Made by a program: the position numbers and the translations under genes
Shown here: positions 1-4,710 of the stretch, one piece after another
Numbering within the stretch: the stretch's first letter is position 1
Layout of the letters: each line of letters begins with the position of its first letter
Origin: a virus
Lineage: Duplodnaviria; Heunggongvirae; Uroviricota; Caudoviricetes
Virus record (IMG/VR): IMGVR_UViG_2617270988_000012
Coordinates: 1 to 4,710 of that record
Strand: one strand, 5' to 3'
Length of the DNA stretch: 4,710 bases
Notes under the pieces: generated by a model
Told to the model about the DNA's origin: nothing
The model's input: the letters and a program-made list of their open reading frames with translations, nothing else
The model's database searches: none

Positions 1-345
1 CTTTATGGGATATCTGAAAGGGAAAAGCAGTCTGATGCTTTACGAGCAGTTTGGTGATTTGAAATTCAAGTACAGGAACAGGGAGTTCTGGTGCAGAGGG
101 TATTACGTCGATACGGTGGGTAAGAACACGGCGAAGATACAGGATTACATAAAGCACCAGCTTGAAGAGGATAAAATGGGAGAGCAGTTATCGATTCCCT
201 ATCCGGGCAGCCCGTTTACGGGCCGTAAGTAACGAAGTTGGATGCAAATGTCAGATCGTGTGCGCCTGTTAGGGCGCGGCTGGTAAGAGAGCCTTATAGG
301 CGCATTTGAAAAACCTCCGGCTATGCCGGAGGATATTTATTATTG
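1..345 (+). mobile_element. IS200-like insertion sequence, 3' portion (tnpA 3' end plus right-end region with subterminal hairpins); right boundary approximate
   Basis: tnpA fragment at 2-232 followed by about 100 nt noncoding with two hairpins (GCGCC-tgttag-GGCGC near 269-284; CCTCCGGC-tat-GCCGGAGG at 314-332). IS200/IS605 elements carry subterminal hairpins and IS200 has roughly 100 bp after tnpA, so the element probably ends near 335-345. Exact end not determinable without a reference. Confidence 0.6.
2..232 (+). CDS. tnpA: IS200/IS605-family transposase TnpA (Y1 HUH transposase), C-terminal fragment; 5' end lies upstream of the window
   Basis: Open frame enters from the window edge and stops at TAA 230-232. 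Translation (...FMGYLKGKSSLMLYEQFGDLKFKYRNREFWCRGYYVDTVGKNTAKIQDYIKHQLEEDKMGEQLSIPYPGSPFTGRK) matches my recollection of the C-terminus of enterobacterial IS200 TnpA, including the region carrying the catalytic Tyr (WCRGYYVD). Confidence 0.9.
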   Translation, partial: FMGYLKGKSSLMLYEQFGDLKFKYRNREFWCRGYYVDTVGKNTAKIQDYIKHQLEEDKMGEQLSIPYPGSPFTGRK

Positions 346-376
346 TTGTCAGCTTCCGGATAACGGGAGACGGGGT

Positions 377-592
377 ATGTACCAGATGGAAAAAATCACA
401 ACAGGTGTGTCATACACCACGTCAGCGGTGGGAACGGGCTACTGGTTCCTGCAGTTGCTGGACAGGGTTTCCCCGTCTCAGTGGGCGGCAATAGGCGTGC
501 TGGGAAGTCTGCTGTTTGGGCTGCTGACATATCTGACTAACCTGTATTTCAAAATCAGAGAGGACCGGCGTAAGGCCGCCCGGGGAGAGTGA
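377..592 (+). CDS. S: Class II holin (pinholin, phage 21 S21-like), 71 aa with dual-start motif (Met1/Met4 giving 71- and 68-aa products)
   Basis: SD GGGAGA at 365-370, ATG 377 and second in-frame ATG 386. Product [71 protein letters not shown] has two TMDs (a weakly hydrophobic Gly/Ser/Thr-rich TMD1 and a canonical TMD2) and a charged C-tail; near-colinear with recalled phage 21 S21 71/68. The upstream ATG at 323 lies inside the hairpin and has no SD. Confidence 0.9.
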
Positions 593-595
593 ATA

Positions 596-1153
596 ATGAA
601 CCATGAAGAAATGAATCAGCGCTTCAGTCGCCTGGAAAATGAAATTGCTGAACTGAATAAAAAACTGTCGACGCTGATGCCTTCTGAAGATGAAAAAAAA
701 CGCCGCGATGAGCAGTTTGCTGCGTTTGACGATTATTGTCGGAAAGTGATGAGCAAAAATCTCGCAGAGTGTTTCAGTATTCATAATGATAATTTCAGTG
801 AGCTGGAATGGGAGTGTAACCGGCCATCCTTTGTTGTATCCGGTGATGCCGGGAAAATAACCATCTCAGAAAATGGGAAAGTAACACCTCCATCGCACCA
901 GCACAGTGAGGAGCTCATTGAATTTGCCATTGATTACCTGAAGAACAATAAAAAGCAGGGGCTGATGAAGCGCGTTGGCCGTTGCATGGGATATCTTCAG
1001 GTAGCCGCTGAGATTGAAGCGCTGGCCAGTGGTGCTGATAAGGATGCAATTGTGCGGGAGGCTCTTCTTCGTGATTTTAATACTCCACCCTTTAAAAAAG
1101 TGCCGGCTTACTGGCTTCATCCGGGGCTGACTTATCTTAAAGTGCGTATTTAG
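596..1153 (+). CDS. Hypothetical 185-aa soluble protein (moron) inserted between holin and endolysin; function unknown
   Basis: ATG 596 is 3 nt after the holin stop, with SD GGAG 5-8 nt upstream (translational coupling). Long uninterrupted ORF with an acidic, coiled-coil-like N-terminus (NQRFSRLENEIAELNKKLSTL...), no TM segment and no signal peptide. Hand-counted GC about 42% versus about 60% in the adjacent endolysin. No family recognised by eye. Confidence 0.6.
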   Translation: MNHEEMNQRFSRLENEIAELNKKLSTLMPSEDEKKRRDEQFAAFDDYCRKVMSKNLAECFSIHNDNFSELEWECNRPSFVVSGDAGKITISENGKVTPPSHQHSEELIEFAIDYLKNNKKQGLMKRVGRCMGYLQVAAEIEALASGADKDAIVREALLRDFNTPPFKKVPAYWLHPGLTYLKVRI

Positions 1154-1189
1154 TGGGCCAGGGACAGCGGCTGAATATTTAATATATCC

Positions 1190-1723
1190 ATGAACACCAA
1201 AATCAAATACGGCCTGTCGGCTGCCGTTCTGGCGCTGATTGCCGCTGGTGCGTCTGCGCCTGACATTCTCGACCAGTTTCTGGATGAAAAGGAAGGTAAC
1301 CACACCACGGCATACCGTGATGGCGCGGGTATCTGGACCATCTGCCGCGGTGCCATCCTGGTGGATAGTAAACCTGTCGTCCCGGGCATGAAGTTGTCGA
1401 AGGAAAAATGCGACCAGGTTAACGCCATTGAACGTGATAAGGCGCTGGAGTGGGTGGAGCGCAATATTAAAGTACCGCTGACCGAACCCCAGAAAGCGGG
1501 GATCGCGTCATTCTGTCCGTACAACATTGGTCCCGGTAAGTGTTTCCCGTCGACGTTTTATAGACGAATTAATGCAGGTGATCGAAAAGGTGCCTGCGAA
1601 GCGATTCGCTGGTGGATTAAGGACGGTGGCAGAGACTGCCGTATTCGCTCAAACAACTGTTACGGTCAGGTATTCCGTCGTGACCAGGAGAGCGCGCTGG
1701 CGTGCTGGGGAATCGACAGATAA
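1190..1723 (+). CDS. R: SAR endolysin (signal-anchor-release lysozyme, T4-lysozyme-like glycoside hydrolase family 24; phage 21 R21 type)
   Basis: N-terminal uncharged Ala/Gly/Leu-rich SAR segment (YGLSAAVLALIAAGASAP) followed by the lysozyme catalytic triad spacing E-x8-D-x5-T (EGNHTTAYRDGAGIWT). Overall similarity to recalled R21/P1 Lyz-type lysozymes. No Cys in the SAR domain, so R21-like rather than P1 Lyz-like regulation. Confidence 0.9.
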   Translation: MNTKIKYGLSAAVLALIAAGASAPDILDQFLDEKEGNHTTAYRDGAGIWTICRGAILVDSKPVVPGMKLSKEKCDQVNAIERDKALEWVERNIKVPLTEPQKAGIASFCPYNIGPGKCFPSTFYRRINAGDRKGACEAIRWWIKDGGRDCRIRSNNCYGQVFRRDQESALACWGIDR

Positions 1724-1812
1724 GCAGAATATTTTGCTGAAAAATAAGGTTGGCCAACGCGGGCGGATAACACGAAGTCCTGCGAACTGGCGAAACCTAA
1801 GTGAATAAAAGT

Positions 1813-1854
1813 AAAAACCCCGTTTGTTGGCACCAAGCGGGGTTTTGTGTTTCT
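1813..1854 (+). terminator. Rho-independent terminator (potentially bidirectional) downstream of endolysin
   Basis: Imperfect GC-rich hairpin AACCCCG(1816-1822)...CGGGGTT(1838-1844) with inner TTGG/CCAA pairing, flanked by an A-run upstream (1813-1817) and a T-rich tract downstream (TTTTGTGTTTCT). Confidence 0.7.
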
Positions 1855-1879
1855 GACCTTGAGTAAGGCAAGGGAGAAC

Positions 1880-2062
1880 ATGGCGAAGTATAAACGAATT
1901 CTGTTGAGGTTGACCATGAAAAACGGCCTTGAACTGAAAGCGCCTGTAACTGATGACATCAGCAGAGCACTGGCTTTTGCCATTAAGTGGGTGGCGGTCG
2001 GTGTTGCTGTGTCCCCGATGCTGTATGGGCTGGCAAAACTGGTCATTGCGTTGAAATCGTGA
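1880..2062 (+). CDS. Hypothetical small membrane protein (60 aa; basic N-terminus, C-terminal TM helix)
   Basis: Strong SD AGGGAGA (1872-1878) just upstream of ATG 1880. Product [60 protein letters not shown] has one predicted C-terminal TM segment. Sits between endolysin and Rz. The upstream extension from 1847 is rejected because it has no SD and overlaps the terminator. Confidence 0.5.
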
Positions 2063-2076
2063 AGGGAGGATTAAGC

Positions 2077-2208
2077 ATGTCAGACAAACTCATAACGCTG
2101 GCGAAGATCCTCTGTGTAATTGTCGGCATTTCATTTTCACTAATGCTGGTTGCTCTTTTTCTTTCCATGGCCTGGATGATGTTGTCTTCGTCGGGGCTGC
2201 TGGGGTGA
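2077..2208 (+). CDS. Hypothetical small hydrophobic peptide (43 aa, single TM helix)
   Basis: SD GAAGGGAGGA (2061-2070) then ATG 2077. Product [43 protein letters not shown] is almost entirely one TM helix. Its stop TGA (2206-2208) overlaps the Rz GTG start (2205-2207), suggesting translational coupling into Rz. Confidence 0.45.
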
Positions 2209-2678
2209 ACATAAACCGAATGCTTTCCGCGTTTATCGTTATTCTGCTGGTGGCCTGTGGTGCGCTGTGGATGGCAACAGACCATTACCGTGATAACGCG
2301 ATTACCTACAAAGCGCAGCGCGATAACAAAGCCAGTGAACTGAAGCTGGCGAACGCAACCATTACTGATATGCAGGTGCGCCAGCGCGATGTTGCTGCGC
2401 TCGATGCAAAATACTCGAGGGAATTAGCCGATGCGAGAGCTGAAAATGAAACTCTTCGCGCTGACGTTGCCGCTGGTCGTAAGCGCCTGCGGATCAACGC
2501 CACCTGTCCAGGCTCCGTGCGTGAAGCCCCCACCACCTCCGGCGTGGATAATGCAACCGGCCCCCGACTGGCAGACACCGCTGAACGGGATTATTTCACC
2601 CTCAGAGAGCGGCTGATGACGATGCACAAGCAACTGGAAGGGGCACAGGAATATATCCGTACTCAGTGCCTGAAATAA
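2205..2678 (+). CDS. Rz: Rz i-spanin (inner-membrane spanin subunit), lambda Rz-like
   Basis: Product has an N-terminal TM segment then ...[76 protein letters not shown]...[33 protein letters not shown], nearly colinear with recalled lambda Rz. Start uncertain between GTG 2205 (coupled to the upstream ORF) and ATG 2220. Confidence 0.93.
2431..2616 (+). CDS. Rz1: Rz1 o-spanin (outer-membrane lipoprotein spanin subunit), embedded in the +1 frame of Rz
   Basis: Fully nested inside Rz in an alternate frame. Product [61 protein letters not shown] has a lipobox (LVVSAC) and a Pro-rich core almost identical to recalled lambda Rz1. Confidence 0.92.
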
Positions 2679-3028
2679 GTTTTGTTGATGCGCCGTATCG
2701 TCGCTGTATTCCCTCATTAACAGAGACCGCAGCCCGACAGGGAGACTCCTCTGCGCGAGTGTGCGGGGATAATCAAAAACGATACACACCGGGGTTTACC
2801 GTGTTAACGGAGCGCGGCGTTGTCCCCTCATAGTCGCCTGTCCGGTGCGATGGTGGAAGAAGCCGGATGTTTATCACTATTAATTGATGACACAGAAATG
2901 GATTCATTGAATTTCAGCACGTTTTTGTATTCGTGTTATTGAACATCTGTTTATTTTACTTTTAACATATTGATAATAAAAAGAGCTGTAAATCTTTAGA
3001 TGAGTCGATTTTGTCCGGGGAAGTTCAA

Positions 3029-3169
3029 ATGGATTTTATGCTGACGGTTTCTGGTGTGGTTATCCTGTCCATTGCTTATATTGCAGATAAATATGGCTGC
3101 CATTTGTTATCACGTATTGGCGCTTATTGTTCGTTGATGCTGATTTTCTCGTCGCTTTTTTTTGAGTAA
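3029..3169 (+). CDS. Putative 46-aa hydrophobic peptide within the AT-rich island (speculative)
   Basis: ATG 3029 preceded by GGGGA (3016-3020); product MDFMLTVSGVVILSIAYIADKYGCHLLSRIGAYCSLMLIFSSLFFE. Below the ORF-track size cutoff, sits in roughly 28% GC DNA, and has no conservation evidence, so it could be a chance ORF. Confidence 0.2.
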   Translation: MDFMLTVSGVVILSIAYIADKYGCHLLSRIGAYCSLMLIFSSLFFE

Positions 3170-3301
3170 GTTATATTAATTATAACAAATAATTTTCTGT
3201 GTTATTTTTTCAGGCTATCCCGTCAGAGGGGAAGCCTGTACTGCCGGGGAGCGAATGGAAAACTGATGTGTCCGGTAACTGCGTGTTCTGTGAACACCAT
3301 G

Positions 3302-3487
3302 TTACTTAATTATGTAATTCATACCCGAATTCTCTGTTGACAGCCTTCTTCTGCAGGCTTCAATAACCCACGCTGAAAAGTTTCCTGAACCTTTCAGATC
3401 AAGAGCGATGTTAATTTGTTCAATCATCTGGTTTGGAAATCGGATGTTGCGGGTTGTTGTTCTGCGGGTTCTGTTCTTTGATGACAT
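3302..3487 (-). CDS. Small cos-proximal protein, YlcI/YnfO-like (DUF3950-type) family of lambdoid phages
   Basis: Minus-strand ORF, ATG at 3487-3485 with GGGGA upstream. Product MSSKNRTRRTTTRNIRFPNQMIEQINIALDLKGSGNFSAWVIEACRRRL... matches my recollection of the small protein encoded at the same place (just left of cos, minus strand) in lambda and of E. coli DLP12 YlcI; the C-terminal 12 aa diverge. Confidence 0.7.
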   Translation of the reverse strand: MSSKNRTRRTTTRNIRFPNQMIEQINIALDLKGSGNFSAWVIEACRRRLSTENSGMNYIIK

Positions 3488-3687
3488 AATGTTTCCCCAT
3501 ATTCAGTGTTGCTGATTTGTATTATCTGAAGTTGCTTTTACGTTAATTTGACGCAGATCAATTAATACGATACCTGCGTCATAATTGATTATTTCTCGTG
3601 GTTTGATGGCGTACACACATGTTGTGATAAACCTTATATAGATGATAATCATTATCATTTCGTGGGTCCTTTCCGGCGATCCGACCG

Positions 3688-3711
3688 GTTACGGGGCGGC
3701 GACCTCGCGGG
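3688..3711. other. cosN (terminase nicking site); the 12-nt cohesive-end sequence GGGCGGCGACCT lies at 3694-3705
   Basis: Sequence ...GGTTACG/GGGCGGCGACCT/CGCGGGTTTTCGCTATTTATGAAAATTTTCCGG reproduces the lambda right-end/left-end junction; the 12-nt block is the known lambda cohesive end. Flanking 3640-3690 resembles the lambda cosQ region. Confidence 0.9.
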
Positions 3712-3742
3712 TTTTCGCTATTTATGAAAATTTTCCGGGAAC

Positions 3743-3841
3743 CATGTCCGGTTTCTCTTCAAGTTAACTATATGAAAAATATAAAAACAGGTCTTCTGTG
3801 AACCGGACATGCGCAAAAAATGGACATGTAAACCGGACATG
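3743..3841. promoter_or_regulatory. cosB-like terminase small-subunit binding region with three copies of an 11-bp motif (AACCGGACATG) in R3-I1-R2-R1-like arrangement
   Basis: Inverted copy CATGTCCGGTT at 3743-3753, an AT-rich spacer at 3760-3790 (possible IHF bend site, no clean consensus found), direct copies AACCGGACATG at 3801-3811 and 3831-3841, and a partial GGACATG at 3822-3828. Position between cosN and the Nu1-like gene matches lambda cosB architecture, but the motif differs from lambda R sites. Confidence 0.55.
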
Positions 3842-3888
3842 ACCGGTTTTGTTGTGATTGTGAGGTGAGAGTTTTTGCGAGGTGAGGA

Positions 3889-4398
3889 GTGGCTACGCAG
3901 ACTGAAGTTGCCAGGCATTTAAGTCTGACCGATCGCCAGCTTCGCAGATTGCAGAAATTGCCGGGTGCCCCGATATCGAATAAGCGAGGGCAACTGGATC
4001 TGGATGCCTGGCGCGATTTTTACATATCGTATCTGAGGAGAAGTAAAAACGATGTGCCTGATGGCGATAGCGAAGACGACTATGAGGAAAAATTGCTTAT
4101 TGCCAGATGGGAACTGACAGCAGAACAGGCTGTTACACAGCAGTTAAAAAATGAGGTGTCAAAAGGAAAACTGATTGACACCGGATTCTGTATTTTTGCC
4201 CTCAGTAAGCTGGCAATGGCGTTATCCAGTACGCTTGATTCCATCCCTTTATCCATGCAGCGACAGTTTCCTGATTTAACACCGCGCCATCTTGACCATC
4301 TGAAAACCCTTATTGCGAAGGGGGCAAATCAGTGTGCGCGGGCAGGGGATAAATTACCGGATTTACTCGATGAATATATCAGAGCAACAACTGAATAA
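3889..4398 (+). CDS. nu1: Terminase small subunit (lambda gpNu1-like)
   Basis: GTG start 3889 with SD GAGG at 3879-3882; the frame is closed by TGA at 3883-3885, so no longer start is possible. C-terminal two-thirds (...TGFCIFALSKLAMALSSTLDSIPLSMQRQFPDLTPRHLDHLKTLIAKGANQ...LPDLLDEYIRATTE) align with recalled lambda Nu1; the N-terminal HTH region (ATQTEVARHLSLTDRQLRRLQ) is divergent. Confidence 0.92.
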   Translation: MATQTEVARHLSLTDRQLRRLQKLPGAPISNKRGQLDLDAWRDFYISYLRRSKNDVPDGDSEDDYEEKLLIARWELTAEQAVTQQLKNEVSKGKLIDTGFCIFALSKLAMALSSTLDSIPLSMQRQFPDLTPRHLDHLKTLIAKGANQCARAGDKLPDLLDEYIRATTE

Positions 4399-4399
4399 T

Positions 4400-4710
4400 A
4401 TGATGAGTGCTGTCACAACAGCATTACAGCCCCTGATAAGGGCATTGCCGGTGACGCCAGTTGAATGGGCTGATCAAAATTATTATCTGCCGAAAGAATC
4501 TTCATATGGTGAGGGAGAATGGAAAACGCTGCCATTCCAGATCGCCATTATGAACTGTATGGGTAACGACCAGGTTCGCACGGTTAACCTGATTAAATCT
4601 GCCCGTGTTGGCTATACAAAGATGTTGCTGGGGGTGGTCGGGTATTTTATTGAGCATAAATCCCGAAACAGTCTGCTTTTTCAGCCCACGGATTCTGCCG
4701 CTGAAGATTT
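4400..4710 (+). CDS. A: Terminase large subunit (lambda gpA-like), N-terminal fragment; continues beyond window end
   Basis: ATG 4400 is 1 nt after the Nu1 stop (TAAtATGATG). Product ...PVEWADQNYYLPKESSYGEGEWKTLPFQIAIMNCMGNDQVRTVNLIKSARVGYTKMLLGVVGYFIEHK... is close to the recalled lambda gpA N-terminal region; open to the window end. Confidence 0.93.
   Translation, partial: MMSAVTTALQPLIRALPVTPVEWADQNYYLPKESSYGEGEWKTLPFQIAIMNCMGNDQVRTVNLIKSARVGYTKMLLGVVGYFIEHKSRNSLLFQPTDSAAED

Follow-up and report, generated by a model that had tools for sequence, protein, structure and literature searches.

A gene between the pinholin and endolysin genes of an Escherichia coli lambdoid prophage as a DUF1327-less allele of the long YdfR-family lineage

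Introduction

A stretch of 4,710 nt from a Caudoviricetes record (IMG/VR IMGVR_UViG_2617270988_000012, positions 1 to 4,710), referred to here in its entirety as the window, contains an open reading frame of 185 codons, ORF185, situated between the genes for a pinholin and a SAR endolysin. The question raised by this locus is what that gene is and what its product might do alongside the proteins of lysis. An earlier note, made from the sequence alone, began from the premise that the endolysin gene directly follows the holin gene in cassettes of this kind. That premise fails for the lambdoid prophages of E. coli. In a sample of complete E. coli genomes (a spread of 40 of the 4,280 matching records), most cassettes were found to carry a gene annotated as 'YdfR family protein' or as hypothetical between the class II holin and the lysozyme, and the occupied slot is therefore ordinary. 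A literature search returned no papers on the genes of the holin-endolysin slot; two comparative papers on Stx phages describe only S, R and Rz.

Results

The window and its lysis cassette

The 4.7-kb window represents the late region of a lambdoid prophage of E. coli that resembles the Stx phages. Its gene order is the 3′ end of an IS200 tnpA gene, holin, ORF185, lysozyme, two small ORFs, Rz/Rz1, an AT-rich stretch, YlcI/YnfO (minus strand), cos, Nu1 and the start of the terminase gene. The principal features are as follows.

377 to 592, plus strand: S21-type class II holin (pinholin family), 71 aa; PF04971, E=9e-33, and PHROG holin families
584 to 587, plus strand: Shine-Dalgarno sequence GGAG, within the last holin codons and 8 nt 5′ of the ORF185 ATG; read directly
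596 to 1153, plus strand: ORF185, 185 aa plus stop, ATG start; from the ORF list, with the phrog_1085 match and dN/dS values given below
1190 to 1723, plus strand: SAR-type endolysin, 177 aa; PF00959 (Phage_lysozyme), E=5.5e-24, and phrog_7
2205 to 2678, plus strand: Rz i-spanin; PF03245, E=6e-50
2431 to 2616, plus strand: Rz1 o-spanin, embedded in Rz; ORF with the lipobox LVVSAC
3889 to 4398: Nu1, followed by the start of the large terminase gene

The N-terminus of the endolysin, YGLSAAVLALIAAGASAP, is Gly/Ala-rich and SAR-like, and the E35/D44/T50 spacing is present, as read from the ORF translation. The holin begins with MYQM (377-388), in which there are two Met codons, like those of the dual-start S21, and no basic residue between them. 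The N-terminus of the S21 holin reads MKSM, and the S21 antiholin relies on the basic residue between the starts. If the two alleles differ in this way, the charge-based antiholin mechanism may not apply to the holin of the window.

Several other elements of the window were recorded. The C-terminus of the IS200 tnpA lies at 5-232 and is followed by a strong hairpin at 314-332, about 45 bp before the start of the holin gene. On either strand it resembles a terminator, and its position is downstream of the late promoter region and ahead of the lysis genes. Similarity of the window to other prophages starts only at about 324-336, and none of 5,426 complete E. coli genomes has the IS200-holin junction. 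Directly downstream of the endolysin gene there is a strong terminator-like hairpin (1814-1846, 13 pairs and a T-run). It is followed by two small hydrophobic ORFs, of 60 aa (1880-2062; phrog_1115) and 43 aa (2077-2208; phrog_4906), whose position between R and Rz is kept in related prophages and which may be additional accessory genes of the lysis cassette. The lysozyme-Rz interval is another variable slot in the cassette: some relatives from E. coli and Salmonella have an insertion there of an N6/N4 DNA methyltransferase gene (locus L014, 6342-7277; locus L103, 6501-7445).

Between Rz and cos there is an AT-rich island (2800-3490; 33-40% G+C), which contains a hydrophobic 52-aa ORF with no family match (3011-3169) and, on the minus strand, the YlcI/YnfO (DUF3950) gene (3302-3487). 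The cos region (3684-3850), just 5′ of Nu1, consists of GGGCGGCGACCTCGCGGGTTTTCGCTATTTATGAAAATTTTCCGG, which matches the left cohesive end of lambda, followed by three copies of AACCGGACATG (3801-3811, 3831-3841 and, inverted, 3743-3753). These elements are presumably cosN and the terminase-binding repeats. An Rfam scan of the window gave no match.

ORF185 is a gene of the late operon

Comparison of diverged alleles gave dN/dS values of 0.12-0.40 for the plus-strand frame, indicating purifying selection, and ORF185 is a genuine gene, not a chance reading frame. The exact protein was found on 240 contigs and has hundreds of homologues. It is identical to WP_001015163.1, annotated as a hypothetical protein. 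ORF185 is a common accessory gene of E. coli lambda-like prophages that has already been catalogued. A 145-aa ORF on the opposite strand (866-1303) was rejected as spurious, in view of the selection on the plus frame and of stops in the antisense frame in loci L002 and L018.

The holin stop codon, TGA, occupies 590-592 and the ORF185 start codon 596-598, leaving a gap of 3 nt, and the GGAG sequence at 584-587 lies inside the holin gene. The coupling described in the earlier note, by a 3-nt gap and an own Shine-Dalgarno sequence, is therefore as stated there. The same spacing between the holin gene and an ORF185-type gene was also found in related loci. Translational coupling of this kind implies co-expression with the holin in a fixed proportion. 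A consensus-only scan, which weak promoters could escape, found no sigma-70-like promoter upstream of ORF185 on the plus strand. Nor was a terminator found after the gene, the only 3′ hairpin (1112-1129) being a weak match inside the coding sequence. ORF185 is read, then, as part of the late operon.

A low G+C content had been the argument of the earlier note for a separately acquired moron. The values determined were 45.2% for ORF185 (GC3, 44.6%), 54.6% for the holin gene and 54.1% for the endolysin gene, as compared with the claimed values of about 42, 50 and 60%. It is apparent that ORF185 is indeed lower than both neighbours, and its composition is distinct from theirs, but the contrast of approximately 9 points on each side is smaller than had been supposed, and 26.5% of all 558-nt segments of the window have a G+C content as low or lower, so that the value is locally unexceptional.

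These results bear on the possibility that ORF185 is moron cargo, serving in lysogen defence, superinfection exclusion or abortive infection, or as an anti-defence factor of the phage. Besides the difference of 45.2% from about 54% in the neighbouring genes, such a role would fit the patchy, mosaic distribution of the gene and its location in the Q-to-R region, which carries lambdoid cargo such as stx, nanS-p and pertussis-like toxin genes. A gene situated inside the Q-dependent late operon should, however, be silent in the lysogen, and anti-defence genes are typically early genes. Neither a promoter-like site nor a terminator of its own was found for ORF185, and the PADLOC-DB 2.0 models yielded 0 families at E<=0.1. 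ORF185 does not qualify as a classical moron, nothing points to its expression in the prophage state, and the anti-defence, superinfection-exclusion and abortive-infection candidates put forward earlier are unsupported; cargo of this kind is considered highly improbable.

The product is predicted to be soluble and cytoplasmic, as had also been proposed: the maximum 19-residue Kyte-Doolittle mean is 0.75, which leaves no hydrophobic or membrane segment, the GRAVY value is -0.62 and the pI is 6.2.

Relationship of ORF185 to the YdfR family

Searches of Pfam (E<=0.1) and NCBIfam gave no match to ORF185. This accords with the absence of any recognised family in the earlier note, the one PHROGs family matched being phrog_1085, to which no function is assigned there. 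The match to phrog_1085 is strong (E=7.7e-113, 377.7 bits) and covers only positions 117-296 of the 296 in the profile. The first 116 positions, which represent the DUF1327 part, are missing from ORF185.

Individual proteins present the same picture. In gp05 of Stx2-converting phage 86 (YP_794052.1, 268 aa), a protein of the same slot that is annotated as YdfR family protein and has DUF1327 at its N-terminus, residues 154-268 are 83% identical to residues 71-185 of ORF185. In a 169-aa DUF1327 protein of PhiR12_1, residues 106-162, which follow DUF1327, are 61% identical to residues 4-60 of ORF185. DUF1327 proteins of 287-296 aa show 86-88% identity to ORF185 over 98% of its length. These comparisons indicate that ORF185 corresponds to the part of the long YdfR-family proteins that lies beyond DUF1327, namely a coiled coil (CC) and a C-terminal domain (CTD). 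The 90% cluster to which ORF185 itself belongs is represented by a 329-aa YdfR family protein. The long proteins (287-330 aa; P0033, P0006 and P0172) occupy the same slot, match the same phrog_1085 and are 83-95% identical to ORF185 in the shared CC-CTD; ORF185, in contrast, has no N-terminal DUF1327 (approximately 100-115 aa) and begins at the coiled coil.

PF07041 (DUF1327) was not detected in ORF185 by Pfam at E<=0.1, the positive controls being gp05 of Stx2-converting phage 86 (4e-45) and the PhiR12 protein (2e-34). A tblastn search of the window with three DUF1327 queries likewise gave no match. The location of ORF185, between a class II holin and a lysozyme, is nevertheless that of a YdfR-family gene, and it was the analogy with ydfR of the Qin prophage that the earlier note had raised. 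Qin YdfR (E. coli K-12, P76160, 103 aa, PF07041) is encoded at the same position, in the order essQ-X-rrrQ. It consists of the DUF1327 module only, whereas ORF185 consists of the complementary CC-CTD module only, and there is no sequence similarity between them. BLASTP produced no alignment of the two proteins, and their relation is therefore not one of homology. The analogy holds as to position, and the link is real in another sense, since the two proteins represent partner domains of the same long proteins. From these comparisons of sequence, the identity of ORF185 is regarded as settled: it is a naturally DUF1327-less, recombinant allele of the long YdfR-family lineage.

Modules and predicted structure

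Three parts were distinguished in the protein.

596 to 781, plus strand: N-terminal module (CC), aa 1-62; antiparallel two-helix hairpin or coiled coil in the AF2 model, helices 3-27 and 31-62, containing RLENEIAELNKKLS...PSEDEKKRRDEQFAAF
782 to 829, plus strand: variable linker, aa 63-78; pLDDT <50 at residues 63-69, and an indel region in alignment A2
830 to 1150, plus strand: C-terminal domain (CTD), aa 79-185, approximately 107 aa; three-stranded sheet and four helices in the AF2 model, with strands at 79-97

An acidic, coiled-coil-like N-terminus had been claimed. The helical hairpin is predicted, but residues 1-62 are only mildly acidic (13 acidic and 11 basic residues, pI 5.35). The CTD is basic (pI 9.07). 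In the longer alleles (209-221 aa) the linker contains an insertion of 24-36 aa.

AF2 gave an unusable model (pLDDT 55) with an alignment of 12 sequences from E. coli only. Addition of the distant relatives (alignment A4, 15 sequences) raised the pLDDT to 80.5, with a pTM of 0.54, which represents a moderate model; by block, pLDDT was 80-93 over residues 1-50 and 68 over residues 51-60. In alignment A4, which includes Salmonella relatives at 24-37% identity, residues L115, G128, R129, L134, Q135, A137, P165, K167, W173, P176 and Y180 of the CTD are invariant. A putative metal site (H101/H103/C130) was discounted, since neither C130 nor H101 is kept among the distant relatives.

Foldseek searches with the A4-based model returned 0 matches at E<=1e-3 in the PDB and in BFVD, and a profile search of the PDB sequences gave nothing below E=0.17. 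Among the 15 sequences of alignment A4, all scanned with Pfam, DUF1327 was the only domain detected, in the long forms, and the CTD has no Pfam model. No known structural or lysis family was thus found by homology or by fold (Pfam, NCBIfam, lysis PHROGs, PDB and BFVD), one of the outcomes by which the earlier note had proposed that its reading be judged. Given a moderate model and no informative fold match, it is conservation from which the idea of a binding module must be drawn.

Alleles, mosaicism and distant relatives

The DUF1327-less alleles comprise forms of 185, 209, 213 and 216-221 aa that are 50-97% identical to one another. They share the N-terminus MNHEEMNQR...LENEIAELNKKLS and start 3 nt past the holin stop codon. 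The short form is thus old, and not the result of a single truncation. The ORF185 allele is itself a mosaic of two segments.

596 to 710, plus strand: 5′ segment of the short-form lineage; 94.8% identical to the 213-aa allele in locus L013, and 72% (partial alignment) to the long allele in locus L004
711 to 1189, plus strand: 3′ segment and downstream spacer of a long-form lineage; 99.2% (475/479) identical to the L004 allele, and 87.6% to L013

On these identities, the first 115 nt of ORF185 derive from the short-form lineage and the remainder from a long-form lineage, represented by the 297-aa, DUF1327-containing allele of E. coli AVS0536 (L004). In that strain, positions 1718-2611 of the locus contain an intact ORF of 297 codons encoding DUF1327, CC and CTD. 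In RefSeq this ORF is entered as a truncated pseudogene at 1721-2056 ('missing C-terminus'), the probable cause being a naming model that extends over the short YdfR alone. The entry has the look of an artefact of annotation, by which the CC-CTD part is hidden.

A HMMER search of 1.84 billion representative sequences gave 42 matches, two of which, the long multi-repeat proteins P0138 and P0144, were discarded as unrelated repetitive proteins. In none of the HMMER matches and relatives was the CC-CTD fused to a domain with a known function. The distant relatives, 24-37% identical, bear Salmonella enterica names or derive from metagenome assemblies. They also match phrog_1085 (P0162 and P0129, both from Salmonella enterica, among them), and they occur both with and without a DUF1327-like N-terminal domain, the latter form being exemplified by P0136 (184 aa, metagenome assembly) and P0227 (165 aa, Salmonella enterica subsp. 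diarizonae). All named members of the family are from Escherichia, Shigella or Salmonella.

Occupancy of the slot and genomic context

Genomic context was surveyed in 83 related loci, from 3 species-representative genomes and 80 IMG/VR records. In 80 of these the gene lies between a holin gene immediately upstream and a lysozyme gene downstream, and the other three are cut by contig ends. The recurrence of homologues between holin and endolysin genes, proposed as a check in the earlier note, is thus borne out. DUF1327 is lacking in 43 loci, fused or upstream in 39 and downstream in one. It is apparent that CC-CTD and DUF1327 may be fused, encoded by adjacent separate genes, or present each alone.

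The split arrangement is seen in loci L013-L016, in which the two modules belong to different genes, one encoding a CC-CTD protein of 213 aa and, after it, one encoding a PF07041 protein of 75 aa. This is a permutation of the gene order of the fused form. The 213-aa type is widespread, and in one locus lies directly downstream of stx. The protein of this Stx-type prophage arrangement, P0054, has the same N-terminus as ORF185 (MNHEEMNQRFSRLENEIAELNKKLS), the same start 3 nt past the holin and the same CTD. It differs in a 28-aa linker insertion that is missing from ORF185, and its loci carry both the separate DUF1327 gene and an antisense 95-aa ORF before the lysozyme, neither of which is present in the window. 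No DUF1327 gene was detected within 9 kb of the identical ORF185 gene in locus L001, and any partnership would therefore have to operate in trans, if it exists.

In many related loci the interval between the CC-CTD gene and the lysozyme contains an ORF of 95-118 aa in antisense orientation (phrog_1853 or phrog_10490; L002, 4078-4392; L005, 2370-2726; L010, 4661-4975; L013, 4902-5189). In the window, ORF185 and the lysozyme gene are separated by a 36-nt spacer only. In ten Salmonella-type loci the family member is found in the Q-S interval, 0-2 genes ahead of the holin. In L101 (2157-3469) and L102 (2325-3469) it follows a pertussis-toxin-S1-like gene and a 106-aa ORF in the Q-to-holin interval, a location that corresponds to that of stx in the phages of E. 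coli.

Approximately 11 of the 83 copies (about 13%) are frameshifted or truncated, a rate that implies weak constraint in resident prophages. Together with the missing N-terminal domain of the long forms and the pseudogene flags that RefSeq attaches to some copies, this disruption might suggest that ORF185 is a remnant without function: part of a long YdfR-family gene in decay, from which DUF1327 has been lost and which persists only by linkage to the lysis genes. Decay is difficult to reconcile with the dN/dS values of 0.12-0.40, with a start conserved right after the holin across alleles as little as 50% identical, or with the exact protein on 240 contigs; the DUF1327-less architecture, moreover, recurs in the distant relatives P0136 and P0227. 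The chance that ORF185 is such a remnant is regarded as slight.

Empty slots occur with the same holin-endolysin pairs (for example in H97), as does a short DUF1327 protein alone. Because such cassettes exist, and because about 13% of the loci are disrupted, ORF185 cannot be essential for lysis. This result bears in turn on the main rival to the reading preferred here, according to which the product would be a cytoplasmic modulator of lysis timing that advances or delays triggering through binding to the pinholin, at its cytoplasmic C-terminal tail, or to the membrane-tethered SAR endolysin. Linkage to a class II holin throughout some 95 loci of Escherichia, Shigella and Salmonella (0-2 genes away in Salmonella) would be expected of such a protein, as would the 3-nt gap and the Shine-Dalgarno sequence inside the holin gene in E. 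coli. The absence from the MYQM start of the basic residue present in S21 also points in this direction. The same holin-endolysin pairs, however, are found with the slot empty or filled by a DUF1327 protein alone, and the S, R, Rz and Rz1 genes of phage 21 suffice for lysis. ORF185 has no membrane segment. No lysis-category PHROG was among its matches, which included no similarity to antiholins or holin regulators (S21-71, lambda S107, T4 RI/RIII, P1 LydB). The Salmonella gene lies upstream of the holin and is uncoupled, and pseudogenes are frequent. A role in lysis timing is, on balance, improbable.

Discussion

Qin YdfR is the sole member of the wider family for which there are experimental data, and those data concern DUF1327, the module that ORF185 lacks. 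Residues 1-72 of Qin YdfR bind the catalytic N-terminal domain of RNase E, as determined by two-hybrid and pull-down assays, and RNA co-purifies with the protein (PMC13232886).

The explanation favoured here combines the identity of ORF185 as a CC-CTD protein with a role as an accessory factor. ORF185 is translated in step with the S21-type pinholin gene. The CC-CTD protein would be made only late, under Q-dependent antitermination, and in proportion to the holin. Most likely it would be a non-essential cytoplasmic factor that binds protein or RNA in the pathway served by DUF1327, a pathway whose Qin representative targets membrane-bound RNase E. It could act alone, by way of the basic and highly conserved surface of the CTD, or in trans with the DUF1327 proteins of co-resident prophages, and it would not be required for pinholin/SAR-endolysin lysis itself. 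To this explanation as a whole we assign a probability of approximately 0.45. Its functional part, a partner module of DUF1327 acting by protein or RNA binding, is suggested by fusion, fission and linkage, and we would put its probability at roughly one in four. In a hypervariable hotspot of recombination, fusion and fission could reflect shuffling, as opposed to functional coupling.

Functional analogies may be drawn with other small, soluble phage proteins that have a membrane-associated target, whether the cytoplasmic domain of a holin or RNase E. RIII of T4 is a soluble, cytoplasmic antiholin cofactor, and gp0.7 of T7, Srd of T4 and Dip of phiKZ are phage modulators of RNase E. The resemblance is one of function only, ORF185 having no similarity to any lysis-category PHROG in sequence, or to any PDB entry in sequence or fold.

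What is new here is the division of these proteins into two separable modules, the unmodelled and structurally unmatched CTD, its fusion, fission and permutation with DUF1327, and the conserved linkage to class II holins. In most lambdoid prophages of E. coli, Shiga-toxin phages among them, the slot between pinholin and SAR endolysin is filled, and none of its occupants has an assigned role. The Pfam model DUF1327/YdfR describes one of the two modules, and the second, CC-CTD, is the more conserved. There is accordingly a case for a new domain model for CC-CTD and for correction of the RefSeq pseudogene calls.

The gene is common, catalogued, dispensable for lysis and often disrupted, and the likely outcome of its further study is an accessory modulator, not a new principle. 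A broader reading, which we consider doubtful, is that the CC-CTD proteins form a structurally new domain family, confined to enterobacterial lambdoid phages, and that, by themselves or as fusions with DUF1327, they work at the inner membrane during the final minutes of infection and either retune RNase E-dependent RNA decay or set the time of pinholin triggering. If that were true, the hypervariable slot between holin and endolysin would be a previously unrecognised regulatory layer of lysis and toxin release in lambdoid phages, the Stx phages included.
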